Source: Spirochaetia bacterium | GTDB taxonomy: Bacteria > Spirochaetota > Spirochaetia > CAKZLE01 | Assembly: GCA_963677595.1 (NCBI GenBank) | Contig: OY782041.1 | Span: 1,408,001-1,472,000, forward strand | Length of the DNA: 64,000 bases | Reading direction: 5' to 3' | Part shown: piece after piece, positions 44,760-64,000 of the stretch | Numbering within the stretch: the stretch's first letter is position 1 | Layout: each line of letters begins with the position of its first letter | The notes under the pieces: generated by a model | Told to the model about the DNA's origin: nothing | The model's input: only the letters and a program-made list of their open reading frames with translations | Database searches by the model: none | Program-made: the position numbers and the translations under genes

Positions 44760-45410
44760 TCAGCAAATCTCCAACCGGCAGTTCTCACCATACACCCCGA
44801 TATGCGCACCCTTCTTTGCAGCAGGCCCTTCTGCATGGGCAAGCATCCACTTGTTCTTCATCCAGAGCTTGCCGTCAGGACCCCCGTCAAGCGGGGTGTT
44901 CGTCCCTGCTGGCAGGATGATGACCGCCGTGAACTGCTTCTCATCAACCCGGCAGGGAGCGAGATGGAGTGTGGTGGAATAGAGCTCTGCAATGGTCCCT
45001 TTCGGGAGGTAGACGTATTCGGTCAGCGCAGAGTCCCAGCCCTGCTCCGGATCGACGTCCTGCAGCTGCCCGAGCATCAGCACCAGGTCTGTCGCGGCAC
45101 CGATCACCTCACTGGACTTATGGTATTCCATCCCGTTGAGCAGGGTGTTGTACCCAAAACAGCAGCCTGCCTCCACGGGGATCTCCCCGAAGACATGCCT
45201 GCTGATCTCCCTGACCACCCCGAACCCTTCGAGTTGGTCGTTCGAGGCCTCGTAACCGGTAGCCCCTTCCTCAGCATGGAAGATACGGCATGCATGATCG
45301 AGCAGCTCTCCCGCATCAAGCGAGAGGATCTCGCCATACTCACGGAACTTCCGATCATGGACATCGAGGATCTCTTTTGTGGGGTTGCCTGCCCGTAATC
45401 GTGCTAGCAT
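44760..45410 (-). CDS. DUF4867 family protein (SftX/SqvB-like, typical of sulfoglycolysis clusters)
   Basis: NGMEYHKSSE, ELYSTTLHLAPC, LPAGTN, NKWMLAH; overlaps the SQase stop. Confidence 0.82.
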   Translation of the reverse strand: MLARLRAGNPTKEILDVHDRKFREYGEILSLDAGELLDHACRIFHAEEGATGYEASNDQLEGFGVVREISRHVFGEIPVEAGCCFGYNTLLNGMEYHKSSEVIGAATDLVLMLGQLQDVDPEQGWDSALTEYVYLPKGTIAELYSTTLHLAPCRVDEKQFTAVIILPAGTNTPLDGGPDGKLWMKNKWMLAHAEGPAAKKGAHIGVYGENCRLEIC

Positions 45411-47407
45411 GAGCGCAGTCCCTCGAACACTGACGTGAAATCTGACCCCTTCCTGAAGAAGACCGGCGGTTCCCCATAGGGAGCGGGGACCGTGACGGTC
45501 ACCCCTCCCTCGAACTCATCACCTGACCAGAGGTGTACCCACCTTCCCTTAGGGAGCCGGGCATTCATGAGCTTCCGCTTCTTGTAGATGACCGGTGCTA
45601 CCAGGAGGTCTCGCCCGTACAGGTACTGATACGGCCACTTCTCAAGTTCCTTCCGCTCCTGCGGGTATTCCAGGTGCACCATCCTCATCGGCGGGATCCC
45701 GGTCTCCTGGTACTCCTCGGCCAGCGCCATATGGTAGGGCTTCAGGGCGGCATAGACCCTGGTCATCCGTCCGACCTGCCCAAGGACCTCATCGTCACTG
45801 TCGAACTGCACGTTGTTCTGGGGCCGGTTCCCCTCGTGGGAACGCATGATCTGGGTGAATGCCGCATACTCGGCCCACCGGATCAGCAGTTCCTTGGAAC
45901 GCTTCTTGCTCCCGAGGGTCGTGTACCCGCCGACATCGGAGTGGACATAGCCTACCCCGGCGACCCCCATCATGAGGGATGCATTGATCGCCGAGGGGAA
46001 CCCGTCCTCCTTCGTCCAGTCGACGAGCTGGTCACCGGTCCAGAACGAGGACATATACTTGATCGCCTTCGATGAGGTAGACCGCATGAAGAAGATCACC
46101 TCATCCTCCATACCTGCCTCCTGGATCGCCTCATGGTTGATCCTGGCCCAGTCCTCGGGGTACCGGTTATGGTAGGTCATCGGGCTCTCCCCGGAAGACA
46201 GCGTGCTGTCCGACGGGATATACTCCCCGAAATCTGCCATCCAGCCGGAGATCCCCTGCTCGATCAGGTTCTTCTTGATGATCCCCTTCAGCCATTCACA
46301 GGCCTCGGGATTGGTGAAGTCGACGAGCATCGCCGGGTCGAAGGGGACATAGACCGGGTAGTTCTCCCCCTCCCGGTTCTTGATCAGGTACCCCTTCCGG
46401 TCTGCCTCATCGAACATCTCGCTCCCCGGTGTGAGGAAGGTATTCGTGTAGGCAAGGAACCTGACGCCCTTCTTGCGCAGTTCCTTGATGTACTGGGGAA
46501 GGTCCGGATAGAGTTTCTGGTCGTACTCCCAGCACCACCGCAGCTGCTTACCGAACGAGGTCATCCTGATCCCTTCCCAGTCCTGGCACCAGATAGCCCC
46601 AATCCTGAAGTCATGCTTCAGGGCTTTGCCGACCTTCTCCTCAGCGATGGCCTTCCCGCCCTGCATGCCGATCCACATACCGTCATAGACCCAGTGGGGC
46701 AGCCTCGGCTGCCGTCCTATCAGGTCAGAGAGGTGGGTCAGGGCTTTTTTCATCGTCCCTGCTATCCCTATATGGATGACCTGGGGGATCTCCCAGCAGT
46801 AGAAGGTGTTCTTCTCCTGCTGTGTCAGGTTCAACCGGCCGAAGGCACTGGTCTCGGCATAGAAATAGAGGCCGGCTGACGTGATCCACGCCGGCTGGGC
46901 AAAGTTCGTGTTATACCACTTCGGCAGGTGGCCTGTCTTCGCGGCGACACTGAGTGTGAAGAGGTCGAGGCGTCTTCCCACCCCGGGTTCCGAGATCCAT
47001 AAGGGGGCGTTGCTGCCCCTGAGGTTCTGCCGGTCGAAGAGTTCCCCCCCGCCGTAGACTCCCTCATCGGTAAGGGCCCCGAGGTGGAGCCGGTACCGGT
47101 TGTACTGGAGGTCGAGCAGCCAGCTTCTCACCAGTACCTGGTTCCCGTCCTCCTGCTCCTCGAGGACCACATGGAGCATGCCGGGGAAGGAGATCTCCAT
47201 CTTCTTCTCCGACTCGATCTTTATCCTGGCCTTCGGCATGGCAGCCCATGCGACCTTGTTCTCCTTGACCTTGAAGACGCCGGAATGGGACTCTACCCTG
47301 GATACCCCGATCCCGACCTGAAAACAGGGGTGCTCCGACGTATGGTGAAGGATCTCCCTCTCCCCTATCGAGAGGCTGAACCCCTTATCGATCTCTCTGC
47401 ACTGCAT
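45404..47407 (-). CDS. yihQ: Sulfoquinovosidase (GH31)
   Basis: SEPGVGR, GMQGG, QDWEGIRMTSFGKQLRW, WMADFGEY, GDQLVDW, DVGGYT, RSHEGNRP. Confidence 0.92.
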   Translation of the reverse strand: MQCREIDKGFSLSIGEREILHHTSEHPCFQVGIGVSRVESHSGVFKVKENKVAWAAMPKARIKIESEKKMEISFPGMLHVVLEEQEDGNQVLVRSWLLDLQYNRYRLHLGALTDEGVYGGGELFDRQNLRGSNAPLWISEPGVGRRLDLFTLSVAAKTGHLPKWYNTNFAQPAWITSAGLYFYAETSAFGRLNLTQQEKNTFYCWEIPQVIHIGIAGTMKKALTHLSDLIGRQPRLPHWVYDGMWIGMQGGKAIAEEKVGKALKHDFRIGAIWCQDWEGIRMTSFGKQLRWCWEYDQKLYPDLPQYIKELRKKGVRFLAYTNTFLTPGSEMFDEADRKGYLIKNREGENYPVYVPFDPAMLVDFTNPEACEWLKGIIKKNLIEQGISGWMADFGEYIPSDSTLSSGESPMTYHNRYPEDWARINHEAIQEAGMEDEVIFFMRSTSSKAIKYMSSFWTGDQLVDWTKEDGFPSAINASLMMGVAGVGYVHSDVGGYTTLGSKKRSKELLIRWAEYAAFTQIMRSHEGNRPQNNVQFDSDDEVLGQVGRMTRVYAALKPYHMALAEEYQETGIPPMRMVHLEYPQERKELEKWPYQYLYGRDLLVAPVIYKKRKLMNARLPKGRWVHLWSGDEFEGGVTVTVPAPYGEPPVFFRKGSDFTSVFEGLRSC

Positions 47408-48724
47408 CTACTCGATGACCTCCCAGCCTTTGATCTTAGCCAGTAACCTGAACGGCCTGACGTAATCACCATAGACGACTGACGCATGGTGGGCAATACC
47501 CTTGTCGACCACCGTCTGCAGGACATCCTTCACATGCCTGGTGAAGCGTGCCTTCATATAGGTTCCCCGCAGCTCCTTCTCCATCGGGATCACCGTCCCC
47601 TGGGCAAGGAATACCCGGTAGTCGGTACCGGCAGAGTCGAGCCTGAGGACGGATACGTCCCCATCCTTGAGGACGAAGTCAGCCGTGACTCCCTTCCCGC
47701 CGGCGAAGTAGGTCGAGAGCGACCGTGTGCATCGCCCGTCCCACAGGTTGCAGGGAGCGACACCGCAGTGCCAGAGCAGGGCGGAATCCTCCTCGAAATC
47801 GACCTGGGAGAAATCGAAGAGGTAGGGAGTCTCAGCCCCGACCGCCTGGTGGGCGATCATGGAGAGCGCCCCTTCGATGTCCCCTTCGCAGGAGAGGATC
47901 CTCCCCTCGCTCTGGAGGATGGACATCGCGGCACAGGGGGAGATCCCGAACTCAGCGGCGAACTCCGGCCAGCAGCGTACGGCCATGGCTGTTACCCCAT
48001 GCTCATCCATGAAGCCGTTGAGCTTCGCCGTGAGTTCCGCTACCCGTGTCACCTGGTAGTCATTGAGCTCGCTGACATCGAAGATCTTCTTCACCTGGGC
48101 GAGCCGCTCCTGCAGCTGCTCATCGGTGATCTTGTAGTCCCAGACCTGCCCGAGCTCGAAGTGGTTGATGAGGATCCCCATCTGTTCATAGACGTTGAGG
48201 TCATAGACCCCAAGGTTGAAGAACCCCTTTGCCCGATAACCGAGGACACCGAGGCTGGTGTTCCTGAAGGCGGCATCGACCCTGATCGCGTCGACCCACT
48301 CCTCATCTATCGTCTCACCGACATTCACTGTGTAGGTCCTGATCCCGCTCTTGTAGAGGTTCGAGGCATTGAGGTTGACCCCGCAGACCGAGTTGAGCCT
48401 GATCTTGCCGCCGTTATAGGGGAGCTCGGGCAGTCCCCACAGGAGCAGTGGCGCATGGAGCACCTTGTCGAGCTCAAGCACCAGGTGCCCGAGGTGGAAT
48501 GTGCCGCTGATGACCACCAAGCCGTCTATCTGCTGCCCAGCCAGGTACCGGGCTGCCGCCTTTGCCTCATCAACCTCTATGACGAGGCTCTCCACGGCAC
48601 AGACCTCGACAGCCTCTACCTCCCTGATCGAGTGTAGTATCTCTGTATAGAGTTCGCCTGCCGCCTCGAAATCGAAGGTGGTCCTTGCCAGGCAGACAAC
48701 TCCTAATCGTACGTTCGCTTTCAT
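47408..48724 (-). CDS. sqvD: Fucose/arabinose isomerase-like sulfoquinovose isomerase (SqvD/SftI-type)
   Basis: LARTTFD, SGTFHLG, GKIRLNSVCG, RCWPEF, CEGD, WHCG, AHH; adjacent to the SQase. Confidence 0.82.
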   Translation of the reverse strand: MKANVRLGVVCLARTTFDFEAAGELYTEILHSIREVEAVEVCAVESLVIEVDEAKAAARYLAGQQIDGLVVISGTFHLGHLVLELDKVLHAPLLLWGLPELPYNGGKIRLNSVCGVNLNASNLYKSGIRTYTVNVGETIDEEWVDAIRVDAAFRNTSLGVLGYRAKGFFNLGVYDLNVYEQMGILINHFELGQVWDYKITDEQLQERLAQVKKIFDVSELNDYQVTRVAELTAKLNGFMDEHGVTAMAVRCWPEFAAEFGISPCAAMSILQSEGRILSCEGDIEGALSMIAHQAVGAETPYLFDFSQVDFEEDSALLWHCGVAPCNLWDGRCTRSLSTYFAGGKGVTADFVLKDGDVSVLRLDSAGTDYRVFLAQGTVIPMEKELRGTYMKARFTRHVKDVLQTVVDKGIAHHASVVYGDYVRPFRLLAKIKGWEVIE

Positions 48725-48747
48725 GGATCCATACTCCTGCTTTTTAT

Positions 48748-48768
48748 TTAGTTTCACTAAGTAAGTAA
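48748..48768. promoter_or_regulatory. Cluster operator upstream of the isomerase operon
   Basis: TTAGTTTC-ACTAA-GTAAGTAA (two mismatches to TTACTTAC-N5-GTAAGTAA). Confidence 0.75.
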
Positions 48769-48798
48769 AACATGGAACCATGGTTATGTCAATCTAAA

Positions 48799-48834: not shown

Positions 48835-49003
48835 AGACAGCATCCTCGTCGTTATCCCAGACTTGTGCAAAGGATGCTTCCGAAGCTTGCGCCCATTCCT
48901 GGTCTCTTGATCGGATGAAATCGATGAAATCATTGATCTCTGAAAGGTTTTCAGGGGAAACCTGTTCCAATTTCCTGATCACATCTTCTACTCGTATTTG
49001 CAT
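48821..49003 (-). CDS. DUF2281-like antitoxin
   Basis: EINDFIDFI and ASEASFAQVWDNDEDAVYDSL; GGAGG RBS. Confidence 0.75.
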   Translation of the reverse strand: MQIRVEDVIRKLEQVSPENLSEINDFIDFIRSRDQEWAQASEASFAQVWDNDEDAVYDSL

Positions 49004-49030
49004 ATATCCTCCCCATGCCAGGCAGGCCTA

Positions 49031-50137
49031 TCACAAGCCCCCTGCCGATTCCAGGGCCGCGACCGATGCAGCCAGCGAGCGGATCCCGTCTTCCACGGTC
49101 GCGGTCACCGGTTCCCCGGCTGCGATAGCCCTGCAGAACTCCTTCACCATCTCCCGTATGTTGAACGGCTCGGTCGCCTCCTCCCCGTAGGTGGTCACCT
49201 CCGCATCCTTCGGCCCATCCCCCGGCTTCCCGACGGAGACGATCCCGAGGTAGTCAGTAGCCCCGTTATCGAGGGAGGAGTAGACTTCCTCCTTCAGCCC
49301 CGCCCATGCGGTGCCGTCAGCCCCATGGATGGTCAGCTGGAGGCTGAAATCGAAGCCGGTGAGGGCATGGGAGACCTGGAAGATCCCCCCATCCTCGTAC
49401 CGCCCCTGAATGTAGGCGACATCCTCGAAGTCGAAGTCGTCATGGACCCCGGAGGCCGTCACGCAGTGTATAGTGCCGATCTCCTTCGAGGTGATGAAAC
49501 GGGCCAGGTCGAACCAGTGGCAGGTCTCCTCGATGATGAGGCCTCCTGAGAACTCCCGCTGCTGGATCCAATGGTTCCATTTATCACGCCTGAAGGGGGT
49601 CCTGAAGTGGTAGAGGGAGAAGGCCTCAACCCTGCCTATCCTGCCTGAGTCGACGATCTGTTTCAGCTGCTGTACTACCGGGTTCATCCGGAACTCATAG
49701 CCGATGCAGACCTGCTTCCCATAGGCTTCCGCCAGCCTCCCGATCTCGTGTGCATCCTCCATGGTGATGGCGACCGGCTTCTCAAGCATGATGTGCTTGC
49801 CTGATTCCATGACCCGTCTCAAGTGCCCTGCATGGAGGTAATCAGGCGTGCAGATGCTCACAATGTCAATCTCCGGGTCTTCCAGGATCGAATCCATGGA
49901 ATCTGTCGTTCTTACCCCTATATCCTCCCATCGCCTGCCAAGCAGTTCTTCCTTGAACAGGGGCTTGAGGCAGAGCATGCTCCCCTGCTCGAAGGTTCCC
50001 CCTACCGAGGCAAGGCGCCCCGGTATGAGGTCACAGACTGCTGCAAGCTCTGCGTATTCACTCTCCAGGTAGCCCGCGACATGGGCCATCCCGATCCCCA
50101 GGCCGATCACTGCGGCTTTTTTCTTCTCTATACTCAT
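49031..50137 (-). CDS. Gfo/Idh/MocA NAD-dependent oxidoreductase
   Basis: VIGLGIG, CTPDYLH, LEKP, SGGLIIEETCHWFD. Confidence 0.88.
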   Translation of the reverse strand: MSIEKKKAAVIGLGIGMAHVAGYLESEYAELAAVCDLIPGRLASVGGTFEQGSMLCLKPLFKEELLGRRWEDIGVRTTDSMDSILEDPEIDIVSICTPDYLHAGHLRRVMESGKHIMLEKPVAITMEDAHEIGRLAEAYGKQVCIGYEFRMNPVVQQLKQIVDSGRIGRVEAFSLYHFRTPFRRDKWNHWIQQREFSGGLIIEETCHWFDLARFITSKEIGTIHCVTASGVHDDFDFEDVAYIQGRYEDGGIFQVSHALTGFDFSLQLTIHGADGTAWAGLKEEVYSSLDNGATDYLGIVSVGKPGDGPKDAEVTTYGEEATEPFNIREMVKEFCRAIAAGEPVTATVEDGIRSLAASVAALESAGGL

Positions 50138-50142
50138 AGTTA

Positions 50143-51066
50143 TTATTCCTTCTCATCTCTGAACAATTCCATGCAGTTCTGCAGGAACATCGAATATGTC
50201 ACATCCTCAGGCAGCCCTAGCGACCTGACCGAGGCCTCTCCGTCGTCACCCCATGGATAGGGATCGTCTAGCATCTCATGAGAGCTGAGGAAGGTATGTA
50301 TCCTCTGCACGGTCCGGCTGTTCTCCTCTACAGACATCCAGGGAAAGAGTTTATCCGTTTTACTGAAGAACATGGCATCACTCCCGAAGAGGATCCTCTC
50401 CCGGTACCTGGTGAAGAACTCAATTGACTCCTCCCGCTGGTTCGAGAGTACCCGGTAGAACCAGCGTCCGGGAGCCGTATCAAGGGAGAGATTCTGGTGC
50501 CGGTCCATGATCGCAGAGAGTTCCCCCAGGTCGCCACCTGAGAGGAACAGCAGGTGGGCACAGATGACGTTCGTCCCCGGACAGCGTCCGAGCAGCTGCT
50601 CGAACTGCGCGATATACCAGCTGAAGGGAGGATAGTCCTTTGCATACATTCCACCCTTCTCCCAGAATGCAGGGGGATCAGCTGCATGGACCAGAACCGG
50701 CATGCCGAGTTCCCCTGCCGCACAGACAGCCTCCTCGATCTCCCCTGAGACCATCTGCATACCGTGGGCTCTCCCGATCGAGGGTTTCCCGATCCAGAGC
50801 TTCAGCCCGGAGAACCCTGCAGTCTGCAGGTCCCTGACCTGCCCTACAGCCCCTCGCTCCCCGATCCTCCCGTACTCCAGGCAGCCGTAGCCGAAGAACC
50901 GGGATGGGTCACGTTCGAGGGCATACAGGATCGCCGGGTTGTAAGAGGTACCGTCTGCCTTCGGCAGCGATACCAGGCCAGCCCGTTCTATCCCGTTGAG
51001 GTCACAGAAGGAGACGAGATCCCCATACCGTTGGGTTTCACAGAAATGGACATGTGCATCGATCAT
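50143..51066 (-). CDS. Amidohydrolase (Amidohydro_2 type)
   Basis: IDAHVH, GLKL, VLVHAADP, ICAH, RILFGSD. Confidence 0.85.
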   Translation of the reverse strand: MIDAHVHFCETQRYGDLVSFCDLNGIERAGLVSLPKADGTSYNPAILYALERDPSRFFGYGCLEYGRIGERGAVGQVRDLQTAGFSGLKLWIGKPSIGRAHGMQMVSGEIEEAVCAAGELGMPVLVHAADPPAFWEKGGMYAKDYPPFSWYIAQFEQLLGRCPGTNVICAHLLFLSGGDLGELSAIMDRHQNLSLDTAPGRWFYRVLSNQREESIEFFTRYRERILFGSDAMFFSKTDKLFPWMSVEENSRTVQRIHTFLSSHEMLDDPYPWGDDGEASVRSLGLPEDVTYSMFLQNCMELFRDEKE

Positions 51067-51902
51067 CTCAGGGCGAACTCCGGCGTACCCGCCACGATCG
51101 GCGTCACATAATACTTGATAGCAGGATGTCCCTGCACCAGGGTCACGGGGAATTCAGGGGTCGGTTCGGTAAGCAGCGCCTTCCTGAAGACCGATGCCTG
51201 CCAGGGTCGGTTGAAGAAGATCTGGAGCTTCCGTGCCCCTGCGATCTGCTTCATCCCCACGGTAACCGCCCGTTTCGGTATCTCCTCGAACGCCCCCCGC
51301 AGGGCCGTGTTGGAGTTGATCGTGATCGTCTCCCGAGTCAGCTCCACTACCCGCGTGGGGAGATGGAGGAACTCCTCAGCCGTGATCTTCGCTTCACTGA
51401 TCGGTTCGTTGAAGGCAAGGTGCCCCACGATGCCCACTCCTGCATGACAGAGGTCGATACCGCCGAGCTCCTCGATCCTCGCATCATAGGCCCCTGGGTC
51501 TGCAGGGTCGGGGAAATGGATCTGTTCTGGATTCAGCCCGTACTGTTCAGGCATGGGATCGATCAGTTCCCGCCTGATGAAGCCCTGGAAGGAGAGGGGG
51601 TCGTCAGGATCTACCCTCAGATCGGTGCCGTCTTGGAGGTACTCATCCATGAAGAAGAGGTGGAGGTTCGAGAGGTCGATCGGCCGGTAGTCCAGCAGGG
51701 TGATGAACCTGCGGTACTGGAAGACCGGCCCGACCGGCATGATGCAGGTCGTAGGCTTCCCGAGAGCATTCTGCTCCTCGATCGTCTGGTACAGCGATAA
51801 CGCCATGTGGTAATAGAGGTCGATGTCTGACTCGACTGTCGTGATGTCAGACCCTGTCCGAGATGTGATCTCTTTTACTGTTGTGGAATAGATTGGATTC
51901 AT
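51063..51902 (-). CDS. Glucosamine-6-phosphate deaminase/isomerase-like protein (divergent NagB)
   Basis: FMDEY, GGIDL, GVGIVGHLAFNEP, PKRAVTVGM; PVGP replaces the usual TGST loop. Confidence 0.82.
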   Translation of the reverse strand: MNPIYSTTVKEITSRTGSDITTVESDIDLYYHMALSLYQTIEEQNALGKPTTCIMPVGPVFQYRRFITLLDYRPIDLSNLHLFFMDEYLQDGTDLRVDPDDPLSFQGFIRRELIDPMPEQYGLNPEQIHFPDPADPGAYDARIEELGGIDLCHAGVGIVGHLAFNEPISEAKITAEEFLHLPTRVVELTRETITINSNTALRGAFEEIPKRAVTVGMKQIAGARKLQIFFNRPWQASVFRKALLTEPTPEFPVTLVQGHPAIKYYVTPIVAGTPEFALR

Positions 51903-52060
51903 CTTCTTGCTCCTTTGCAGTGTGCAAGAAAGAAAATTAGCCCGGGCTTCGCCCAAACGCCTCCCGGTGACCTCGGATGGCCTTACCTGCCATTGATGAT
52001 CCCGGAATGGGACAAGGAGTGTCCGTATCGCAAGCTTACCATAGATGCAGTATTATGCAA
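51903..52060 (-). promoter_or_regulatory. Promoter and structured ~125-nt leader of the NagB-like operon
   Basis: Minus strand TTGCAT-16-TAAGCT (52060-52033); hairpins at 52010-52024, 51964-52005 and 51944-51954, then a T-rich run. Confidence 0.5.
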
Positions 52061-52100: not shown

Positions 52101-53564
52101 CTAATATAATCCCGTCCCCAGCCCGACGAGGTAGACGACGCCGGAGAGGATGATCGACCCGAAGAGGGTCATGAGCAGTCCCGACTTCGCGAAGTCCGCG
52201 ATCGAGAAGTAGCCAGCCGAATAGGGGATGACGTTCGTGGGTGAGGAGGTCACCAGGATGAACGCAAGCGATGCCACCAGTGAGGCCGGCAGGGCCACGG
52301 AGAGCACCGGCAGTCCCAAGGCGACGGCCAACTCGATCATGATCGGGATGATGATCGTTGCCGTGACCGTGTTACTCGAGAAGACGATCTTCAGCAGCGA
52401 GATCATCAGCACGATCACGAACACCATCACGTACGACGGCAGGCTCCCGATGCCTGAGAGCAGTACCACCGACAGCCATCTCGCAGCTCCCGTCGTGTAG
52501 AGCATCATCCCCAGCGAGATACCCGTCACGATCAGGATGATCCCGCTCCACGATACCTGCGGCTCGATCTGCTTCCACGGAATACGCGATACCTTCGGCA
52601 GGAAGAACAGACAGGCGGTGAACATCACCGGCATCGAGATCGGGATGCTGATCCCCAGCCACTTCCCGAGCACCGGCGAACCGAGCCACAGCACCACCGT
52701 GATCAGGAAGAGCACCATTGTGATGATCTCCTCCCGCCCCATCGGCGGCAGGTCCCTCGACTCCTGCTTGAGCTCTTCCTTCGTCTTCGACAAGTGGCTC
52801 ATCTCCGGCTTGAAGAAGATCATCAGCGTCACCCAGGAGGCCGGGATCATCAACAGTGCCGCCGGCACCCCGTAGAGCATCCACTGCCCGAAGGTTACGT
52901 CATAGCCTGCCATATCCTTCAGGAATCCGATCGCCAACGCGTTCGGTCCCGCACCTGAGGGGGTCGCGATCCCCCCGATGATCGAGCCTTGCGCACACGC
53001 GATCAAGAGCGCTCTCCCGAAGTTGCTCTCCAGCGGCTTGATCCCTTCCTCTTCCAGGATCGCCACCGCCAGCGGCATCAGCATCGCCGCTACCGCCATG
53101 TTCGTGATCCACATCGACAGCAGACCACCTGCCAGCAGGAACCCGAAGAGGATGCTCTTCGTCGAGTTCCCCGTCTTCGAGAGGATCAGTACACCGATGC
53201 GTTTCCCCAGTCCCGATGTCGTGATGAACGCTGAGAGGATCAGTACCCCGATGAAGAACGTCACCGTGTTCGACCCGAACCCCTCTTTCACGATCACCTT
53301 GTAGGTATCTACCCGAAACAACGTCAGCAGCACGATCGACAGCATCCCCGTCACATGGAACGGGATCGCCTCGGTCATCCACAGCACCAGCGCGAAGGCC
53401 AGTACCCCCATCGCCGCCTGTCCGGTCACCGTCAACTCCGCACTCCCCACGATCCGCACCGAATCGGCGATCGGCATACTCTTCACCACCACCATCAGTA
53501 CGACCGCCAGCACGAAGTACAGCAGCTTCTTCGCATCTATCTTCTGTATCTCATTCAGGCTCAT
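52101..53564 (-). CDS. DASS/SLC13 anion transporter (candidate sulfoacetate exporter)
   Basis: WMTEAIP, SMWITN, GGIATPSGAGPN, FSSNT, SSPTN; last gene of the sqwD-ligase operon. Confidence 0.87.
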   Translation of the reverse strand: MSLNEIQKIDAKKLLYFVLAVVLMVVVKSMPIADSVRIVGSAELTVTGQAAMGVLAFALVLWMTEAIPFHVTGMLSIVLLTLFRVDTYKVIVKEGFGSNTVTFFIGVLILSAFITTSGLGKRIGVLILSKTGNSTKSILFGFLLAGGLLSMWITNMAVAAMLMPLAVAILEEEGIKPLESNFGRALLIACAQGSIIGGIATPSGAGPNALAIGFLKDMAGYDVTFGQWMLYGVPAALLMIPASWVTLMIFFKPEMSHLSKTKEELKQESRDLPPMGREEIITMVLFLITVVLWLGSPVLGKWLGISIPISMPVMFTACLFFLPKVSRIPWKQIEPQVSWSGIILIVTGISLGMMLYTTGAARWLSVVLLSGIGSLPSYVMVFVIVLMISLLKIVFSSNTVTATIIIPIMIELAVALGLPVLSVALPASLVASLAFILVTSSPTNVIPYSAGYFSIADFAKSGLLMTLFGSIILSGVVYLVGLGTGLY

Positions 53565-53578
53565 CGAGCTCTCCTCTC

Positions 53579-54463
53579 TCAGTCTTCCAGCAGTTCCTTC
53601 AGCAACTCTCCCACGAACCGCGGCCGTTCAGCCACCAGCCCGCCGGCTTCCGTCAAGGCAGCGATCTTCCCTTCCACCGTCCCTTTACCACCAGTCACGA
53701 TCGCTCCCGCATGGCCCATCCGCTTCCCTTTCGGTGCCGTACGGCCCCCTAAGAATGCCACCACCGGCTTCGTGAAGCTCCCGTCTGCCATCGCCTCGGC
53801 TACTTCCTCTTCCATCGTCCCGCCAAGCTCCCCGATGATCACCACCGCGTCGGTCGTCTCATCGGCTTCATAGAGCGGCAACATCTCGGCAAACCGCGTC
53901 CCCGGTACCGGGTCACCCCCGATCCCGATGAGCGAACTCACCCCAAAGCCTGCGGCGACTACCATCGCCGTCACCTCATTGGTCAACGACCCGCTTCGCG
54001 TCATGACCCCGATCCGTCCCGGCTTGTACACCCGATCGATCCAGTACGGGAACATCCCCATCATCGCCGATCCCGGGCTGATCACCCCAGAGGTGTTCCC
54101 ACCGACCACCATCGCCCCGCAGCTCTTCGCTGCAGCACGGATCTCCACCATCTCATGCAGCGGGATCCCGTCGGCGATCGTCACGATTTTTTTGATCCCG
54201 CCATCAAGTGCCTCGAAGACAGCATCTTTGGTGAACCGCGGTGGCACGAACAGCATCGCCGCATCCACCTCATGCTCTGCCACTGCCCGTCTCACCGAGT
54301 GGTAGACCGGCTTCCCGCAGACAGCCTGCCCTTCTTTCCCCGGCGTCACCCCGCAGGTCACCTGCGTCCCAAGATCTATCATATGGCCCGTCCAGAAGCT
54401 CCCCTCTTTCCCGGTGATCCCCTGCACGAGTACCTTCGTATCCCTGTCTATGAATATGCTCAT
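53579..54463 (-). CDS. sqwL: ADP-forming acid--CoA ligase alpha subunit (SucD-like; sulfoacetate--CoA ligase by context)
   Basis: VQGITG, GVTPGK, RSGSLT, GIGGDP, MGHAGA. GGNTSG replaces SucD GPNCPG. The K/L subunit naming is from memory. Confidence 0.78.
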   Translation of the reverse strand: MSIFIDRDTKVLVQGITGKEGSFWTGHMIDLGTQVTCGVTPGKEGQAVCGKPVYHSVRRAVAEHEVDAAMLFVPPRFTKDAVFEALDGGIKKIVTIADGIPLHEMVEIRAAAKSCGAMVVGGNTSGVISPGSAMMGMFPYWIDRVYKPGRIGVMTRSGSLTNEVTAMVVAAGFGVSSLIGIGGDPVPGTRFAEMLPLYEADETTDAVVIIGELGGTMEEEVAEAMADGSFTKPVVAFLGGRTAPKGKRMGHAGAIVTGGKGTVEGKIAALTEAGGLVAERPRFVGELLKELLED

Positions 54464-54468
54464 CTCTC

Positions 54469-55587
54469 TTAAGCTCCCTTCGCGATCGCCACGGCTTTCC
54501 GTACAGCCTCTTCCGTATCGAACAGCGGCTCGAGTCCTGCAGCTTGCAGGATCCTCACGGCCTCTTCCTCGTTCGTCCCACGGATGCACGTCACGATCGG
54601 CCGGTCCGGCTTCAGCTTCGTCATCGCTTCCACGATCCCCTCTGCCATCACGTCCGCCCGCGCGATCGTCCCGAAGGTCACCATCAGGATCACCTTCGAC
54701 TCGTTTTGCAGACACAGTTCCATCGCTCGCATCGCCTTCCGGTAGTTCGGCCCCCCGAACTCCAGGTAGTTCGCGACCTTCCCCCCTTCGTAGTTGATCA
54801 GGTCGTAGACGGTCGTCGTCAGTCCTGCCCCCGCACACATCAACGAGATGTCCCCGTCGAACTGCAGGTACGGGATCCCCTCTCTCGCTGCCTCGAACTC
54901 CATGTCGCTCTCGTAGTACTCCCGGGTCCGCTCATACCCCGGCTGCCGCTCCATCGAGTTCTCATCGATACTGAGCTTCCCGTCCCCAGCAAGCACCTGC
55001 CCCTCACTCGTGATGAACAGCGGGTTGATCTCCGCAAGCTCCGCATCACAGCTGGAGAAGACCTCGTAGAGCTGCATCACGATCTTCTTCACCTGCTTCG
55101 CCACCATACCCTCGCAGCCCAGCCGGTAGGCAAGGTCCCCTGCCTGGTACGGCTGCAGCCCCGCGGTGATGTCCACCGCCTCCTGGATGATCTTCTCAGG
55201 GTCACTCACCGCCAAGCTCTCGATCTCCACCCCGCCTTCTGCGCTCGCGATGATCAATGCAGACGGGGCCACCGGGTCGATCGTCACCGACAGGTAGATC
55301 TCACGGTCGATAGACACCGCTTCTTCCACCAGCAGCTTCTTCACCCCATGCTCGGAGGCAAACAACCGCTCGGCTTCAGATTTCGCTTCATCTGCCGTTC
55401 TCACGAACGGGATCAGTCCCGCCTTCCCGCGCCCGCCCCGCAGCACCTGCGATTTCAGCACGCACGGCAGCCCGACTTCCTCGATCGCTGCACGCACCTC
55501 TTCCACGCTCTCGGCCAGTATACCCTTCGGCGTCGGTATCCCGTGGGTCCGGAAGACCGCTTTCGCCTGGTATTCGAATAGTTTCAT
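54469..55587 (-). CDS. sqwK: ADP-forming acid--CoA ligase beta subunit (SucC-like; sulfoacetate--CoA ligase by context)
   Basis: MKLFEYQAK, GGRGKAG, AEINPL. CAGAGL, NYLEFGG and FGTIARAD deviate from SucC NGAGL, NFLDVGG and FGGIVRCD. Confidence 0.78.
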   Translation of the reverse strand: MKLFEYQAKAVFRTHGIPTPKGILAESVEEVRAAIEEVGLPCVLKSQVLRGGRGKAGLIPFVRTADEAKSEAERLFASEHGVKKLLVEEAVSIDREIYLSVTIDPVAPSALIIASAEGGVEIESLAVSDPEKIIQEAVDITAGLQPYQAGDLAYRLGCEGMVAKQVKKIVMQLYEVFSSCDAELAEINPLFITSEGQVLAGDGKLSIDENSMERQPGYERTREYYESDMEFEAAREGIPYLQFDGDISLMCAGAGLTTTVYDLINYEGGKVANYLEFGGPNYRKAMRAMELCLQNESKVILMVTFGTIARADVMAEGIVEAMTKLKPDRPIVTCIRGTNEEEAVRILQAAGLEPLFDTEEAVRKAVAIAKGA

Positions 55588-55592
55588 CGCTC

Positions 55593-57011
55593 TTATTCCC
55601 CGTACTTCTCTACGAATGCTCCAAACATCTCCTCATCACTCGGCTTCACCGGCGTGATCGGCTTCGAAAGCCATGTCACATTCAGGAAGTGCTTGTAGTT
55701 GATGTTCTCCGTCGTGATGTTCCCGCCCCACGTACCGCAGCCTAACGTTACCGTACTCGGCATCCCGTTGAAGAAGTTCCCCCCGTTCGCCGGCGCCTGC
55801 GGCTGGTTCACGATGATCCTCGAGGACTTCATGTGGGTCCCGAGGTAGTCGATGTATGCCTCCTTCTGCGTGAAGATCCCGCAGGAGTGTCCTGTCCCGT
55901 TGTTGTCCGTGATCTCTTTGAGCAGCGTATACCCCTCTTCGAAGTCTGCGTACTTCCATACCGTGAGCACCGGAGAGAGCTTCTCCTTCGCATACCGGTC
56001 TTCGGTGATCGGCCTCTTCCCCTCTACCACGAGCATCCGCTTCTCTGCAGGGATCGAAAGCCCTGCATCAGCTGCGATCACCTGCGCCGACTTCGCCACG
56101 ATCCCGGGGTTCAGGGCCACATACCCCTTCTTGTTCTCGACCCACATCCAGTGCTCTAACGTCTGCTTCTCTTCAGCCGAACACAGGTATCCGCCTTCTG
56201 CTTCCAGGAGTCTCATGAACTCGTCATAGATCGACTCTTGCACGATCACGGAGTTCTCCGACGAGCAGCTCGTCGCGTTGTCGAAGCATTTGCTCAATGC
56301 TACCTTCGCTGCCGCGTCGGCTACATCGGCATCCTCGGCGATGATCTGCACCGAGTTCCCCGGCCCTACCCCGTAGGCTGGCGTGCCCGATGAGTAGGCG
56401 GCCTTCACCATCGCGGAGCCCCCGGTCGCCAAGACCAGGTCCACCTTCGCCATCAGTTCCCCCGTGGCCGGGATCGACGGTTCTGCGATGATCTGGATGA
56501 GATCCTCAGGTGCCCCCACCTTCTTCAAGCCGGCACGCATGTACTCGACTGCCAGTGAGGAGGCTGCCTTCGACCGCGGGTGCGGTGCGAAGATCACCGC
56601 GTTCCGCCCTTTGAGCACGCTCACCGCGTTGCTCCCCGGCGTCGCCGTCGGGTTCGTCACCGGCGTCAATGCCCCGATGACCCCCACCGGCTTGGCATAC
56701 TTGAAGATCTGCTTCGCCTCATTCACCTCGATGAGCCCCACTGACTTCGCGCCTGAGTCCATCACGTCCTTCAGTACCCCGAGAATCTTCCCCTTGTGCT
56801 TCTTCACCTTGTCCTCGTAGTTCCCCATCCCCGTCTCCTCGACGGCCAATGCGGCGAGTTTCTCGATGTTCTCGTCCTTGTACACTTCCCATCCGATCGC
56901 CAAGCACACCTCGTCGATCTGCTCCTGGGTGTAGTCGGCTACCTGCGCCTGCGCGGCTCGGGCCTTCTCTACGAGTTCCGCGATCATATCCTGGGTTTCC
57001 TGCTCTGCCAT
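55593..57011 (-). CDS. sqwD: CoA-acylating sulfoacetaldehyde dehydrogenase (SauS/SqwD-type)
   Basis: PVTNP, ATGG, GVGPGN, SKCFDNATSCSSENS, EKLSPVL, LGCGTWGGN. Confidence 0.85.
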   Translation of the reverse strand: MAEQETQDMIAELVEKARAAQAQVADYTQEQIDEVCLAIGWEVYKDENIEKLAALAVEETGMGNYEDKVKKHKGKILGVLKDVMDSGAKSVGLIEVNEAKQIFKYAKPVGVIGALTPVTNPTATPGSNAVSVLKGRNAVIFAPHPRSKAASSLAVEYMRAGLKKVGAPEDLIQIIAEPSIPATGELMAKVDLVLATGGSAMVKAAYSSGTPAYGVGPGNSVQIIAEDADVADAAAKVALSKCFDNATSCSSENSVIVQESIYDEFMRLLEAEGGYLCSAEEKQTLEHWMWVENKKGYVALNPGIVAKSAQVIAADAGLSIPAEKRMLVVEGKRPITEDRYAKEKLSPVLTVWKYADFEEGYTLLKEITDNNGTGHSCGIFTQKEAYIDYLGTHMKSSRIIVNQPQAPANGGNFFNGMPSTVTLGCGTWGGNITTENINYKHFLNVTWLSKPITPVKPSDEEMFGAFVEKYGE

Positions 57012-57186: not shown

Positions 57187-58041
57187 TTATCCCTTCACCG
57201 CCCCTGCAGTCATGCCGCTGATGATGCGGTCATGGAGGAAGATGTAGACGAAGATCGTCGGGATCATCGTGATCACGATCGCGGCCAGCATGCTGGTGTA
57301 ATCGATGACGAACTGGCTCCGGAAGAACCTGATACCGAGCTGCAGTGTCCTTGAGGCCTCAGAGGAGGTGAGCAGCATGGCATAGGTGAACTCATTCCAG
57401 CAATAGATGAAGACGAGGGTTCCCGCGGTGACCAAGCCCGGCTTGGTCAAGGGGAACACGACCTTGGTGAACCTCTGGGCGAAGCTGCAGCCATCGATGA
57501 CGGCGGCTTCCTCCAGTTCTACAGGAATGGATCCCATGAACCCGTGGACGAGGAAGAGTGATACCGGGATGTTCATCGCCGCATAGGTGATGACCAGGCC
57601 CAGCAGGGTGTCATAGAGTCCGAAACCGCTGACGATCTTGAAATAGGGGACCATCAGCGCGATGATCGGGACGAGGACACCTGCGAGGATGACGTTGAGC
57701 AGGGTCTCATTGAACCGGAACTTCTCCCGCGAGATGGCGAACGCCCCCATGGCCGATACCACGAGGTTCAGGGCCATCGCGCAGGTGGAGACGATCGCTG
57801 AGTTCAGGAAGAGTCTCGGCAGACCTGCCATGTCGAGTGCCTTCGCATAGTTCTGGAACTGCCAGACTGCCGGAAGCGCAAAGGGCTGCGTCTCGAACTC
57901 GAGGTTCGTCTTGAACGACGAGATGATCAGCCAGATGATGGGTACAAAGGTCATGATCACGAAGAAGATGATATAGGCCCATTTCGCGATCTTGGCGATA
58001 TAGTCGACTGCAGTACGTTTCTGTAATGTGTTCTTTCCCAT
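57187..58041 (-). CDS. Carbohydrate ABC transporter permease (MalG-like)
   Basis: ELEEAAVIDG EAA loop, WNEF, GAVKG C-terminus. Confidence 0.92.
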   Translation of the reverse strand: MGKNTLQKRTAVDYIAKIAKWAYIIFFVIMTFVPIIWLIISSFKTNLEFETQPFALPAVWQFQNYAKALDMAGLPRLFLNSAIVSTCAMALNLVVSAMGAFAISREKFRFNETLLNVILAGVLVPIIALMVPYFKIVSGFGLYDTLLGLVITYAAMNIPVSLFLVHGFMGSIPVELEEAAVIDGCSFAQRFTKVVFPLTKPGLVTAGTLVFIYCWNEFTYAMLLTSSEASRTLQLGIRFFRSQFVIDYTSMLAAIVITMIPTIFVYIFLHDRIISGMTAGAVKG

Positions 58042-58051
58042 GATGCTCCCC

Positions 58052-58930
58052 CTACTGCACTGTATCAGCAGCGTCGTCCCTGCTGAAGATCCATCGGATG
58101 AACGCGATGATGGCACCGCCGAAGATGATCAGGACAGACCCGATCGCGTTCGCCTCGCCGTATTTCAACGCCCCGAGGTCCCTGAAGAGCATGATCCCCA
58201 AAACAGAGGTGGAATGTGCCGGCCCGCCGTTGGTCATCAGGTAGGTTGACTCGAAGTGCCTCATCCCGTAGGCGAGTGCCAGGGTACTTGTCGTGACCAG
58301 GATCCCCTTGAGCATCGGGATCGTGATGTGCCGTTCCTGCTGGAAGATGTTGGCCCCGTCGATCTCCGCCGCCTCATAGAAGGTCTCTGAGATGCCCATC
58401 CGTGAGGCGAGGATGACGATCATGAAATAACCGATATAGAAGAGCTGCTGTACGATCACAGCAGGGAATGCCGTATTCATGTCACCGAGCCAGTTCCGCG
58501 TCAGCCCATCCAGGCCAACAGCTCCCAGCAGGTTGTTCAGGATGCCGAACTCCGCGTTATAGATAGCAAGCCACATCATGGCGAGGGCTACCTGCGAGAT
58601 GACGTTCGGGAGAAAATAGACCGTCCTGAACAGTTTCCATCCCTTCGGTTTCCGTGCCAGGATCATAGCCATCCCCGCAGCCAGCGGGATCTGTACGAAG
58701 CCGAGCACGAGTGCCCAGACGATGTTGTTCCTCAGAGAGAGCCTGAACGTCTCATCACTGAACAGATCGATATAGTTCTTGAAGCCGATGAACTCCATCT
58801 TCCCTATACCGTTCCATTTAGTGAAGCTCGTCGCCATGACGAATCCGAGCGGATAGACGAAATAGGCAATGAAGAGAATCAGAACGGGGAGGAGGAAGAC
58901 AAGGATCATCTTCCAGTTCTTGTTCCGCAT
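58052..58930 (-). CDS. Carbohydrate ABC transporter permease (MalF-like)
   Basis: FIGFKNY, YEAAEIDGA, MTNGGP. Confidence 0.92.
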   Translation of the reverse strand: MRNKNWKMILVFLLPVLILFIAYFVYPLGFVMATSFTKWNGIGKMEFIGFKNYIDLFSDETFRLSLRNNIVWALVLGFVQIPLAAGMAMILARKPKGWKLFRTVYFLPNVISQVALAMMWLAIYNAEFGILNNLLGAVGLDGLTRNWLGDMNTAFPAVIVQQLFYIGYFMIVILASRMGISETFYEAAEIDGANIFQQERHITIPMLKGILVTTSTLALAYGMRHFESTYLMTNGGPAHSTSVLGIMLFRDLGALKYGEANAIGSVLIIFGGAIIAFIRWIFSRDDAADTVQ

Positions 58931-59010
58931 AATACTAACCACCTTTTCGCAGAAGGCCCGGTGAAACACCAGGCCTTCATTGTTTTCTGTACGTGTTATG
59001 ATCCTGCGGA

Positions 59011-60276
59011 TCAGTCGATCTTGTCTGCGATCTGCTGGACGAACTGCTTCGGGGTAGCGTTCCCCAGAGCCATCTTGGCAAGAGCCTGACCGAACTCAGC
59101 GACCACGTCAGTGGTGAAGTTGGCCTGGAAGTGGGTGACCATGAATTCTGCGTCATTGACGGCATTCATGAACTTGCCCTGCAGTTCATCGACGTTGTCC
59201 CCTGCATCTACGGAGTACTTCACTGCGAACATCGAACCTGCATCGAAGGAGATCCTCTTCACGTTCTCAGGCTTTGTCATCCATCGCATGAACGCGATGA
59301 CTGCATCCTGCTTCCTTGGGTCATCTGTAGCACCGGCAGCAAGATTGGACTGCGGGAACCCGATCATGGCGCCAGAGTAGTTGATCCCGGGTGCGGAACC
59401 GACTTCGGTAGCGGCATAGACATCAGGCACTTCACTCTTTACCCGGCCGATGTACCAGGGACCGTTGATGAACATCGCTGACCGACCTGCGAGATAGTGG
59501 CCGCCTGCCACGCCGGCATCTCCGCCGACAGCGTCCTTGGAGGTGTTGCCGTCTGAGTACATCTTCAGGAGGATCTCAGCAGCCTGTACGAATACGGGGT
59601 CCGTGATGTCCTTCTTCCATACATCGGGTCCGCCGATCGCTGCTGCGATATGGGAGAACCAGAGCATCGATGTCCATGCGTTGGTACCGCCGGTCATCTG
59701 GCTTGTCGGGATATAGCCTGCAGCCTTGATCTTATCGCATGCTGCGAAGAACTCGTCATAGGTCTCGGGGATCTTGGAGACACCTGAAGCCTTGAGGATG
59801 TCCATGTTGTACCAGATCGGGGTCACGCCGATCTCGAACGGGATGGACTTGGTCTCACCCTTGATGGTAGCGCCGTCGATGGCACCTGCGACGAAGCTGT
59901 CTCCCCAGTCGCTGTCAAGGGCATCCGAGAAGTCCATGAGCAGGTCACCCTCATAGAATGAGAAGGATGTCGGGTCCGGGTTGAACACGAACAGGTCAGG
60001 GACGACGCCTGCTGCGATCTGTGAGTTCAGTTTGTTCCGGTATGCATCATAATCGGGGTTTGCCTCGATATCGACCTGGTATTTGCCTTCATACATGACA
60101 TTGAACTCGTCAACAAGGGCAGCAACGGTCGCAGCCTTCGAGTCCTCACCTACCCAGATGGTAGGCCACTTGAGCACGATCTCTCCGGTCCCTTCCTGCT
60201 GTCCACCTGCCCAGGCCATTGCCGGCATCAGGAACAATACAAGAGCCATCACAAATAAGATTCGTTTAGTCCTCAT
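59011..60276 (-). CDS. Carbohydrate ABC substrate-binding protein (probably SQ or SQ-glycosides)
   Basis: Signal peptide ending AWAGGQQE, IWYNMDIL, MFINGPW, TGGTNAWTSMLW; cluster context. Confidence 0.88.
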   Translation of the reverse strand: MRTKRILFVMALVLFLMPAMAWAGGQQEGTGEIVLKWPTIWVGEDSKAATVAALVDEFNVMYEGKYQVDIEANPDYDAYRNKLNSQIAAGVVPDLFVFNPDPTSFSFYEGDLLMDFSDALDSDWGDSFVAGAIDGATIKGETKSIPFEIGVTPIWYNMDILKASGVSKIPETYDEFFAACDKIKAAGYIPTSQMTGGTNAWTSMLWFSHIAAAIGGPDVWKKDITDPVFVQAAEILLKMYSDGNTSKDAVGGDAGVAGGHYLAGRSAMFINGPWYIGRVKSEVPDVYAATEVGSAPGINYSGAMIGFPQSNLAAGATDDPRKQDAVIAFMRWMTKPENVKRISFDAGSMFAVKYSVDAGDNVDELQGKFMNAVNDAEFMVTHFQANFTTDVVAEFGQALAKMALGNATPKQFVQQIADKID

Positions 60277-60294
60277 AGAAACTCTCCTTTATTT

Positions 60295-60315
60295 TTACTT
60301 ACACTAAGTAAGTAA
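60295..60315. promoter_or_regulatory. Cluster operator upstream of the ABC operon
   Basis: TTACTTAC-ACTAA-GTAAGTAA (perfect arms). Confidence 0.82.
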
Positions 60316-60451
60316 AACACAGTTGATACCAGTTGTCAATATTTTTCTTGGTACATAATTCTCGCCCTTCCGCTCTTTGACAACATCCCCATAGGTACAC
60401 TATACCATGAAACCAATACCATCTCTGTCAGTACTTGGTTATAAAGTCCCA

Positions 60452-61636: not shown

Positions 61637-61736
61637 ATGCTAACTCCTGCAGTCATAGACGGTTGCCGCCTCTTCCCGCTATTTCTCTCTTTTATACCAT
61701 TTTCTCCTTTACAAAGGAAGGATATAATGATATTTT

Positions 61737-61759
61737 TTTACTTACTTAATGTAAGTAAA
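61737..61759. promoter_or_regulatory. Cluster operator upstream of the transketolase operon
   Basis: TTTACTTAC-TTAAT-GTAAGTAAA just downstream of a TATAAT box. Confidence 0.82.
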
Positions 61760-61778
61760 TTATAGCAAGGAGTTCCTG

Positions 61779-62609: not shown

Positions 62610-62610
62610 C

Positions 62611-63549: not shown

Positions 63550-63563
63550 CAGGAGAGAGAAAT

Positions 63564-64000
63564 ATGGCAGACAAGATCACATTGGCAATAGCTTCCGACC
63601 TTTCGGGGTTCCCGCTGAAGACGGCGATCGTGGAGTACCTTAACACCCGCGATGATATCGAGGTGATAGATTTCGGTATCGAGTCACCGGACGCACCGAA
63701 GCCCTACTCGGTCCAGGCACCGAAGGTTGCCCAGGCCATCCAGGACGGCAAGGCAGAGAAAGGTATCCTCATCTGCGGGACAGGACAGGGGATGGCGATC
63801 GTCGCCAACAAGCACAAGGGCATCTACGCCTGCGTCGCTGACAGCGTCTTCTCCGGGGAACGCGCAAAGATCATCAACAACGCCAACGTCCTCACCATGG
63901 GCGGATGGATCACCGCACCCTTCCTCGGCGTCCAGATCGTGGAAGGCTGGCTGAATATGGCGTTCACCCAGAAGATGGAGTTCAAGCGGGACTTCCTCAC
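63564..64000 (+). CDS. sqwI: RpiB/LacAB-family isomerase (SqwI-type), truncated by the window edge
   Basis: Manual translation MADKITLAIASDLSGFPLK...GILICGTGQGMAIVANK...KIINNANVL; not in the ORF track. Confidence 0.8.
   Translation, partial: MADKITLAIASDLSGFPLKTAIVEYLNTRDDIEVIDFGIESPDAPKPYSVQAPKVAQAIQDGKAEKGILICGTGQGMAIVANKHKGIYACVADSVFSGERAKIINNANVLTMGGWITAPFLGVQIVEGWLNMAFTQKMEFKRDFL

Follow-up and report, generated by a model that had tools for sequence, protein, structure and literature searches.

A conserved three-gene cassette in spirochaete sulfoglycolysis clusters: a possible feeder route for amino sulfosugars

Why should a gene cluster that encodes a complete sulfoglycolytic pathway carry three additional enzyme genes in its middle? 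The question is raised by a 64,000-nucleotide stretch of the genome of a Spirochaetia bacterium (contig OY782041.1 of assembly GCA_963677595.1; the window), in which genes for a NagB-like protein, an amidohydrolase and an oxidoreductase of the Gfo/Idh/MocA family lie between the genes for sulfoacetate formation and those for release and isomerisation of sulfoquinovose (SQ). A preliminary description had read this trio as an operon feeding another sulfosugar into the pathway. We find that the trio is very probably linked in function to sulfoglycolysis and that it is a real, conserved and apparently undescribed accessory module of the spirochaete pathway. From the sequences, its most fitting role would be conversion of a 2-amino or N-acyl 6-sulfosugar of the sulfoquinovosamine type to sulfofructose for the resident transketolase (TK) or transaldolase (TAL) pathway, a reading whose chances we regard as close to even. 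The three genes are:

51063..51902, minus strand: NagB-like protein, 279 amino acids; predicted from fold and motifs to be an amino-sulfosugar deaminase/isomerase yielding sulfofructose
50143..51066, minus strand: metal-dependent hydrolase of the Amidohydro_2 family (PF04909), 307 amino acids; predicted de-N-acylase, the least certain assignment
49031..50137, minus strand: GH188-like NAD-dependent Gfo/Idh/MocA enzyme, 368 amino acids; predicted 6-sulfoglycoside C3 oxidoreductase/glycosidase

The coupled arrangement was found as described earlier: the NagB-like and amidohydrolase genes overlap by 4 nt and the amidohydrolase and Gfo genes are 5 nt apart. Upstream are genes for an SqwD-like protein, the alpha and beta subunits of a CoA ligase and a DASS exporter, and downstream those for an SftI-like isomerase, a YihQ-type GH31 sulfoquinovosidase (SQase) and a DUF4867 protein. 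The motifs quoted for the proteins (PVGP, DEY, GHLAFNEP, FRTPFRRDKW and SGGLIIEETCHWFDL) are all present. The closest relatives are all from spirochaete records; Salinispira or Alkalispirochaeta appears in the titles of several orthologue records, and this would be in keeping with a saline source.

Linkage of the cassette to sulfoglycolysis

The distribution of the trio was assessed in an even draw of 401 Spirochaetia genomes, among which related genomes are not independent, so that a Fisher p-value exaggerates the association. A YihQ-type SQase is encoded in 69 of them, and orthologues of the Gfo protein, the NagB-like protein and the amidohydrolase in 29, 34 and 34, respectively; the NagB-like count excludes 11 more distant matches, only one of which comes with YihQ. 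All three orthologues occur together in 27 genomes and YihQ accompanies them in 25 (vs 69/401 overall). The two others are a 74 %-complete metagenome-assembled genome and a genome whose contig breaks off within the SQase gene (L006). The phylum-wide sample gave no Gfo orthologue in 300 other genomes, whereas the class sample gave 28 besides this genome. The trio is thus an accessory module of spirochaete SQ clusters, being wholly absent from 39 of the 69 genomes with YihQ.

Comparison of genome neighbourhoods, which the preliminary description had proposed as a check, showed that the cassette recurs with SQ genes. Of 34 loci with a NagB-like protein fetched from GTDB genomes, 22 were above the orthologue threshold (43 % identity for the NagB-like protein or 45 % for the Gfo protein). 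The orthologues lie directly behind the same ATP-binding cassette (ABC) permease in 20 of these, the full trio is present in 16, and an SQ-pathway marker is found in the fetched DNA of 17; three of the remaining five genomes have an above-cut-off YihQ elsewhere. Among 68 metagenome loci, many of them short and some duplicates, 36 passed the threshold and 26 of these have an SQ marker. The trio is found with two back-ends, transketolase as well as transaldolase with aldehyde dehydrogenase, and since both start from sulfofructose, this sugar is the likely product of the module. NagB-like and amidohydrolase genes are paired in 32 of 34 genomes. Two single-contig genomes have the ABC importer, the NagB-like protein, the amidohydrolase and an isomerase, with no match for the Gfo orthologue or YihQ, and such pair-only genomes fit a deacylase-deaminase pair with a dispensable glycosidase.

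The surrounding features are:

52101..57011, minus strand: sulfoacetate block of sqwD-, sqwK- and sqwL-like genes and a DASS exporter, between the ABC operon and the trio
57187..60316, minus strand: ABC importer of the SQ cluster, with a solute-binding protein (SBP) and two permeases; generic to spirochaete SQ clusters
44760..48769, minus strand: SftI-like SQ isomerase, YihQ-type GH31 SQase and DUF4867 protein
60452..64000: ROK regulator (minus), split SqwGH-like transketolase (plus) and RpiB/SqwI-like protein (plus), the last running to 64049, beyond the window
60298-60316 (SBP), 48751-48769 (isomerase), 61737-61755 (ROK/TK) and 57039-57057 (sqwD): sites of a 19-bp operator-like motif
51940..51958, minus strand: conserved hairpin upstream of the NagB-like gene, shared with L002, L004, L005 and L042
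52033..52060, minus strand: weak promoter-like site of the extended -10 type, immediately past the terminator-like hairpin of the DASS gene (52063-52091)

The host cluster thus encodes a complete sulfo-TK set of the sulfoacetate type, i.e. SQase, isomerase, split transketolase, RpiB-type SqwI, SqwD, SqwKL and exporter. The YihQ-type protein is above its curated cut-off (753 vs 553); the SqwD-like protein is below that of the SauS model (532 vs 600) and the SftI-like isomerase below its own (217 vs 700).

The preliminary description had noted that the trio has its own promoter and lacks the operator of the ROK regulator. The second part holds: the 19-bp motif, derived by comparing upstream regions, precedes the SBP (0 mismatches), ROK/TK (1), isomerase (2) and sqwD (4) genes. 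Elsewhere in the 4.3-Mb genome it is matched just twice at 4 mismatches, and upstream of the trio nothing comes closer than 8. We infer that the motif is the site of the ROK protein. The promoter is less secure, as the match is weak and lies below the threshold of the consensus scan, which does not list it, but it is retained in L002, the only relative of like arrangement and the only one to share it. Most relatives have the trio about 0-140 nt behind the permease, and it is therefore probably co-transcribed under the 19-bp motif, which the ABC genes carry in the loci scanned. In the window and in L002 the sulfoacetate block separates permease and trio. Its insertion at this point cuts the trio off from the operator, so that the missing operator and the promoter-like site reflect a secondary rearrangement and not foreign origin. 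The hairpin at 51940..51958 is likely a relic of the ancestral spacer between ABC genes and trio, because similar hairpins occur in relatives without the block (L004, L005, L042). The leader region of the trio, about 140 nt, folds at a z-score of -2.6 in a structure that takes in both hairpins; no Rfam match indicating a riboswitch was found at E<=1 within 44000-64000. A NagC-type operator pattern was rejected because its matches are at chance level (5 vs 4.65 expected).

In 16 of the 20 trio-less clusters fetched, the ABC permease abuts the SQase gene, and it is this slot that the trio fills. The same SBP is found in 34 of the 39 trio-less YihQ genomes. The importer is therefore a general spirochaete SQ importer to which the trio has been added as an accessory block, and the idea of a dedicated importer for a new substrate was rejected. 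Against the PDB the SBP gave only distant relatives, none of them informative. In a FastTree phylogeny of 44 SBPs, a single clade (support 0.87) takes in the loci whose permease is immediately followed by the trio, along with four trio-less loci and one that has only the amidohydrolase; such a topology would fit a single gain of the trio and later losses.

Isomerisation of SQ is already provided for by the SftI-like isomerase of the window, orthologues of which occur in 5 of the 20 trio-less clusters. Among the 22 GTDB trio loci, 12 have an SftI- or IolB-like gene in the fetched DNA, and all five further genomes checked have one as well, nearby or elsewhere; none of the candidates reaches the curated SftI cut-off. 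A KduI/IolB-family gene, a candidate for a further type of SQ isomerase, replaces the SftI-like gene in L015 (5724-6479), L016, L019, L020, L021 and L187, and the sulfo-TK clusters L179, L180, L182 and L190 have no recognisable SQ isomerase within the 14-18 kb fetched. Separately, transaldolase-type spirochaete SQ clusters carry a gene of the lactate racemase family (LarA-like; L075:1130-3568, L010:2480-5353, L184, L188), which in L075, L184 and L188 adjoins an SuyB-like gene of the altronate-dehydratase family; a sulfolactate racemase feeding desulfonation is possible.

Some features of the surroundings appear to be local. Genes for a tripartite tricarboxylate transporter, a sulfatase and a LysR protein (37799-43819), of lower GC content (0.46-0.53), adjoin the SQ cluster and are not conserved beside trio loci. 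A 60-amino-acid open reading frame (48821-49003, minus strand), whose product resembles a lone antitoxin-type protein, is placed between the Gfo gene and the promoter of the isomerase; the corresponding spacers of L002, L004 and L005 are shorter and do not contain it. Immediately past the end of the window lies a gene for a class II aldolase/epimerase (L001:4143-4781) that converges on the RpiB-like gene; none was seen beside other trio clusters.

The three proteins

The preliminary description had likened a segment of the oxidoreductase to the Arg/Lys sulfonate-binding segment of NAD-dependent GH188 sulfoquinovosidases, whose Tyr/His catalytic motifs the protein seemed to lack, and this comparison is confirmed by both sequence and structure. 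Chains of SqgA (GH188) are the top PDB matches by sequence and by fold: with a model of the Gfo protein (pLDDT 91.9), Foldseek places them at ranks 1-8 with TM scores of about 0.81-0.82, and VIA-align gives Z 39.9 compared to 36.3 for the next family. No GH188 model was matched in Pfam or NCBIfam. Residues were mapped by alignment at the sequence level and not by ligand superposition, using the query and the best 120 of 180 matches (121 sequences), and the following hold for all 121 of these sequences. The sulfonate-binding Arg166 and Lys172 correspond to R179 and K186, the latter aligning with a one-residue offset, and the C3/C4 residues Lys107, Glu189 and His193 to K120, E203 and H207. Tyr136 is replaced by F149 and His321 by E323, the latter in ungapped register and in an alignment with canonical GH188. 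Further invariant changes are His177, at the published position of the GH109 C2 base, and Glu204 in place of Lys190. In SqgA, according to the available text of PMC10755693, Tyr136 contacts the C2 hydroxyl and His321 is at the C1 hydroxyl.

Because the sulfonate and C3 residues of GH188 are invariant, the Gfo protein likely binds a 6-sulfosugar and oxidises it at C3. It was not assigned to GH188, since two defining features of the family are replaced (Tyr136 by Phe, His321 by Glu). Substitution of Tyr136 with retention of the sulfonate residues would fit a changed substituent at C2. A stand-alone sister clade with 42-43 % identity (L072:10001-11071, L074, L078) keeps Tyr136 and the sulfonate Arg/Lys, and has genes of cysteine and methionine synthesis but no SQ genes nearby.

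The NagB-like protein has no Pfam match and is below every NCBIfam cut-off (75 bits vs 236.9 for TIGR00502). Its model (pLDDT 95.7) has the fold of glucosamine 6-phosphate (GlcN6P) deaminase (TM 0.79 to 5HJ5), with deaminases at E 1e-22 compared to 1e-12 for 6-phosphogluconolactonases; assignment as a 6-phosphogluconolactonase is disfavoured by this ranking. In the 5HJ5 alignment, from which the NagB numbering was read, the residues we take to be catalytic (Asp72, His143 and Glu148) correspond to D86 and H161, conserved in 62 of 62 homologues, and E166 (61/62). The site we take to bind phosphate is lost: PVGP replaces the Gly-Gly/Ser-Thr loop, N198 replaces Arg172 and Q235 replaces Lys208. R232 is a new invariant residue. 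Retention of the catalytic motifs without the phosphate loop, as stated earlier, is thus confirmed. The same genome also has a gene for a canonical NagB at another locus (L038).

The NagB-like orthologues form a well-supported clade (100/99). Proteins of the sister clade, which share the PVGP loop, neighbour NagA (above cut-off in the one tested), pyrophosphate-dependent phosphofructokinase (PPi-PFK), class II aldolase and triose-phosphate isomerase (TIM), and other PVGP proteins adjoin de-N-acetylases of the PIG-L or YdjC type. In one locus (L028), PIG-L, NagB-like, GH188-like and TauE genes are found together. PVGP genes also occur in other SQ-type layouts: with transaldolase and a canonical GH188 (L162; frameshifted), with transaldolase (L164), and in a separate sulfo-TK cluster (L161). 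As read from the sequences, the common thread of the PVGP family is amino-sugar catabolism.

Several further layouts of PVGP genes were seen. In one spirochaete family (L151, L152, L156, L160) a conserved operon has genes for LacI, PPi-PFK, the PVGP NagB-like protein, NagA (not in L160), class II aldolase, a TIM-like and a LarA-like protein. A Vibrio plasmid (L111:8932-16158) carries a PVGP gene with nucleoside hydrolase, adenosine deaminase, ribokinase and NupC genes, possibly for catabolism of an amino-sugar nucleoside. Haloarcula plasmids (L109:9812-28754, L110) have two PVGP NagB-like genes with ketohexokinase, class I aldolase, a GH188-like Gfo protein (Arg kept, Lys172 lost), DUF3604, ABC genes, a short-chain dehydrogenase/reductase and a DgaE-like pyridoxal-phosphate lyase; this cluster is a candidate for a haloarchaeal amino(sulfo)sugar pathway of the Embden-Meyerhof-Parnas type. 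The genome of the window also has a second, distant trio of Gfo, PVGP-type NagB-like and PIG-L deacetylase genes (L037; G000:C1:3272335-3276108).

The amidohydrolase has an intact metal site: H5 and H7 are conserved in 44 of 47 sequences (three gaps), K89, K94, H127 and H171 in all 47 and D230 in 46, in agreement with the PF04909 superfamily pattern of HxH, Lys, His, His and Asp. None of 13 family members matches any NCBIfam model, and searches gave no meaningful PDB sequence match and no informative Atlas assignment. By analogy with amino-sugar pathways it is predicted to be a de-N-acylase.

A route from amino sulfosugars, and what else may explain the trio

In the route proposed here from gene content, linkage, folds and conserved residues, the ABC importer of the cluster would take in the sulfosugar or a small glycoside of it. 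The GH188-like enzyme, with NAD+, would hold the sulfonate by R179 and K186 and oxidise C3, and would probably release the aglycone as well; H177 and E323 are candidates for the roles of the lost Tyr and His. The amidohydrolase would then strip the N-acyl group where one is present, which is the weakest step. Finally, in the best supported step, the NagB-like enzyme would isomerise and deaminate the amino sugar to sulfofructose and ammonia, bypassing SQ isomerase. The idea of an amino or N-acyl 6-sulfosugar feeder, put forward in the preliminary description, remains the best-fitting one; the position of the trio in sulfoglycolysis and the GH188 likeness of the Gfo protein are supported too. 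The earlier caveat that the cassette may be an unrelated insertion is not upheld, and the case for reading a sulfonate substrate from the PVGP loop is weakened.

Several observations weigh against the route. PVGP and R232 are no sulfonate markers, since both also occur in the sister clade that has PFK, aldolase and TIM as neighbours (10 genomes, YihQ in one); as a signature the loop is ruled out, being found family-wide, including the sister clade and the neighbourhoods of nucleoside catabolism. The equivalent of NagB Asp141 is Val or Asn. Characterised PF04909 members are mostly lactonases, decarboxylases and hydratases, and identity of the amidohydrolase with NagA (PF01979, TIGR00221) is ruled out by an hhalign probability of 4 %. 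With a generic importer, there is no dedicated transporter pointing to a new substrate. Nor is the trio obligate: five of the 401 genomes have the NagB-like protein and amidohydrolase only, two have the NagB-like protein only, and the 100 %-complete genome G317 retains only the amidohydrolase in its SQ operon. Sulfoquinovosamine is reportedly a component of the S-layer glycan of Haloarcula hispanica; a search of the openly accessible literature, a scope that leaves out most subscription papers, found nothing on it. As this sugar is said to have a free amine, the amidohydrolase is left without a needed role.

The same genes could serve the salvage of glycan fragments. An imported disaccharide of SQ and an amino sugar, e.g. 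beta-linked SQ on N-acetylglucosamine from archaeal N-glycans, would be cleaved as a beta-sulfoquinovoside by the GH188-like enzyme; SQ would enter the normal pathway, and the amidohydrolase and NagB-like enzyme would turn the unphosphorylated aglycone into fructose. This agrees with the generic importer, the family-wide loss of the phosphate site and the ketohexokinase beside the Haloarcula PVGP genes. The available texts report that GH188 hydrolyses p-nitrophenyl beta-sulfoquinovoside (beta-PNPSQ; PMC10755693) and that SQ is beta-linked in a Sulfolobus N-glycan (PMC11407970). We nevertheless consider it unlikely: the genome already has a canonical NagB, NagB-like orthologues adjoin transaldolase in loci where the other two members of the trio are missing (L162, L164), the two single-contig genomes described above keep the pair with no match for the Gfo orthologue or YihQ, and loss of the Tyr binding the C2 hydroxyl would be unexplained if the glycone were plain SQ.

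Another reading, also rather improbable, makes the NagB-like protein a further aldose-ketose isomerase that acts on a hydroxy sulfosugar, either SQ or an epimer of it at C2 such as sulforhamnose, with the other two enzymes processing unusual SQ glycosides or acylated SQ. The product would again be sulfofructose, the change of Tyr136 to Phe would fit a C2 epimer as well, no isomerase candidate reaches the SftI cut-off, and several trio-less clusters have no isomerase in the fetched DNA. However, the window has a separate isomerase, shared with trio-less clusters, an SftI- or IolB-like gene accompanies the trio in the loci and further genomes counted above, the family neighbours are de-N-acetylases, and NagB chemistry depends on a 2-amine.

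An oxidative side route, which we regard as quite improbable, would have the Gfo protein oxidise the sulfosugar, the amidohydrolase open a lactone or hydrate a 3-keto intermediate, and the NagB-like protein act as lactonase or isomerase. Loss of Tyr136 and His321 could leave a pure dehydrogenase, and PF04909 includes sugar lactonases, but no dehydratase or aldolase of the 2-keto-3-deoxygluconate type is conserved beside the trio in the annotated loci, the NagB-like fold and motifs are those of the deaminase branch, and the amidohydrolase is kept without a Gfo orthologue in 6 of 34 genomes. Lastly, an unrelated insertion acting on phosphosugars is hardly credible: the absent operator and separate promoter-like site of this genome speak for it, yet the invariant GH188-type sulfonate pocket speaks against it, and as a general statement it is refuted by the linkage to SQ genes in 17/22 GTDB loci, 26/36 metagenome loci and 25/27 genomes and by the sulfoacetate block being the actual interruption.

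Conversion of an amino sulfosugar to sulfofructose would have consequences beyond this locus. The described entries to sulfoglycolysis are SQ or its glycosides and a separate sulfofucose route; a module in 27 of 401 genomes, and in 25 of the 69 with YihQ, points to a further natural sulfosugar input, which can be tested with three soluble enzymes of small size and a single substrate within reach of synthesis. The conversion would be an undescribed route in the sulfur cycle; it would also give a first function to the PVGP branch of the NagB family, a large group without annotation, and would set apart a sister clade of GH188 with an altered mechanism. More tentatively still, the trio might be the first known means of catabolising an amino sulfosugar, with archaeal-envelope sulfoquinovosamine taken to sulfofructose by a GH188-derived NAD+ glycosidase retuned to an amine at C2, together with a novel de-N-acylase and a phosphate-free deaminase of the NagB type. 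Sulfoglycolysis would then be fed by archaeal glycans besides plant and algal sulfolipid.

Comparison with known systems

The host cluster encodes the set described for the sulfo-TK variant leading to sulfoacetate (SqwGH, SqwI, SqwD, SqwKL; available text of PMC12890257). The trio is extra to both sulfo-TK and sulfo-TAL, and about half of the spirochaete YihQ genomes are without all three genes. In line with the preliminary description, none of the three belongs to the enzyme lists in the available portions of PMC12890257, PMC13436972 and PMC11659671, and those portions, like those of 10.1101/2023.08.01.551581, PMC11407970, PMC6098224 and PMC11284389, do not mention such enzymes in SQ catabolism. 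No link of an amidohydrolase or GlcN6P deaminase to SQ or sulfoglycolysis was found in the open literature, although the cluster figures of Chu 2023 and Liu 2021 or the GH188 list may show the genes.

With GH188 SqgA (PDB 8QC2/3/5/6/8, 8ZN9) the Gfo protein shares the closest fold and the equivalents of Lys107, Arg166, Lys172, Glu189 and His193, all invariant. It differs in having only about 23 % identity, an insert of about 28 residues in the N-terminal domain, and Glu at Lys190, His at Glu163/164 and Arg or Lys at Leu170, in addition to the changes at Tyr136 and His321. It co-occurs with a GH31 SQase, whereas GH188 clusters lack GH31 according to the available text of PMC10755693. The GH188 variants in the accessible part of PMC11465081, which also differ at Leu170, are a different group.

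The NagB-like protein resembles canonical NagB (EC 3.5.99.6; TIGR00502) in its fold and its Asp72, His143 and Glu148 equivalents, and departs from it in the loop shortened to PVGP, Asn for Arg172, Gln for Lys208, Val or Asn for Asp141, and the invariant Arg232. As a whole, the proposed module is most like the NagA-NagB and AgaA-AgaI/S systems of amino-sugar catabolism, in that de-N-acylation would be followed by deamination to a ketose; it differs in that its hydrolase belongs to PF04909 and is not NagA, and in that the proposed substrate would carry a C6 sulfonate and need no kinase.

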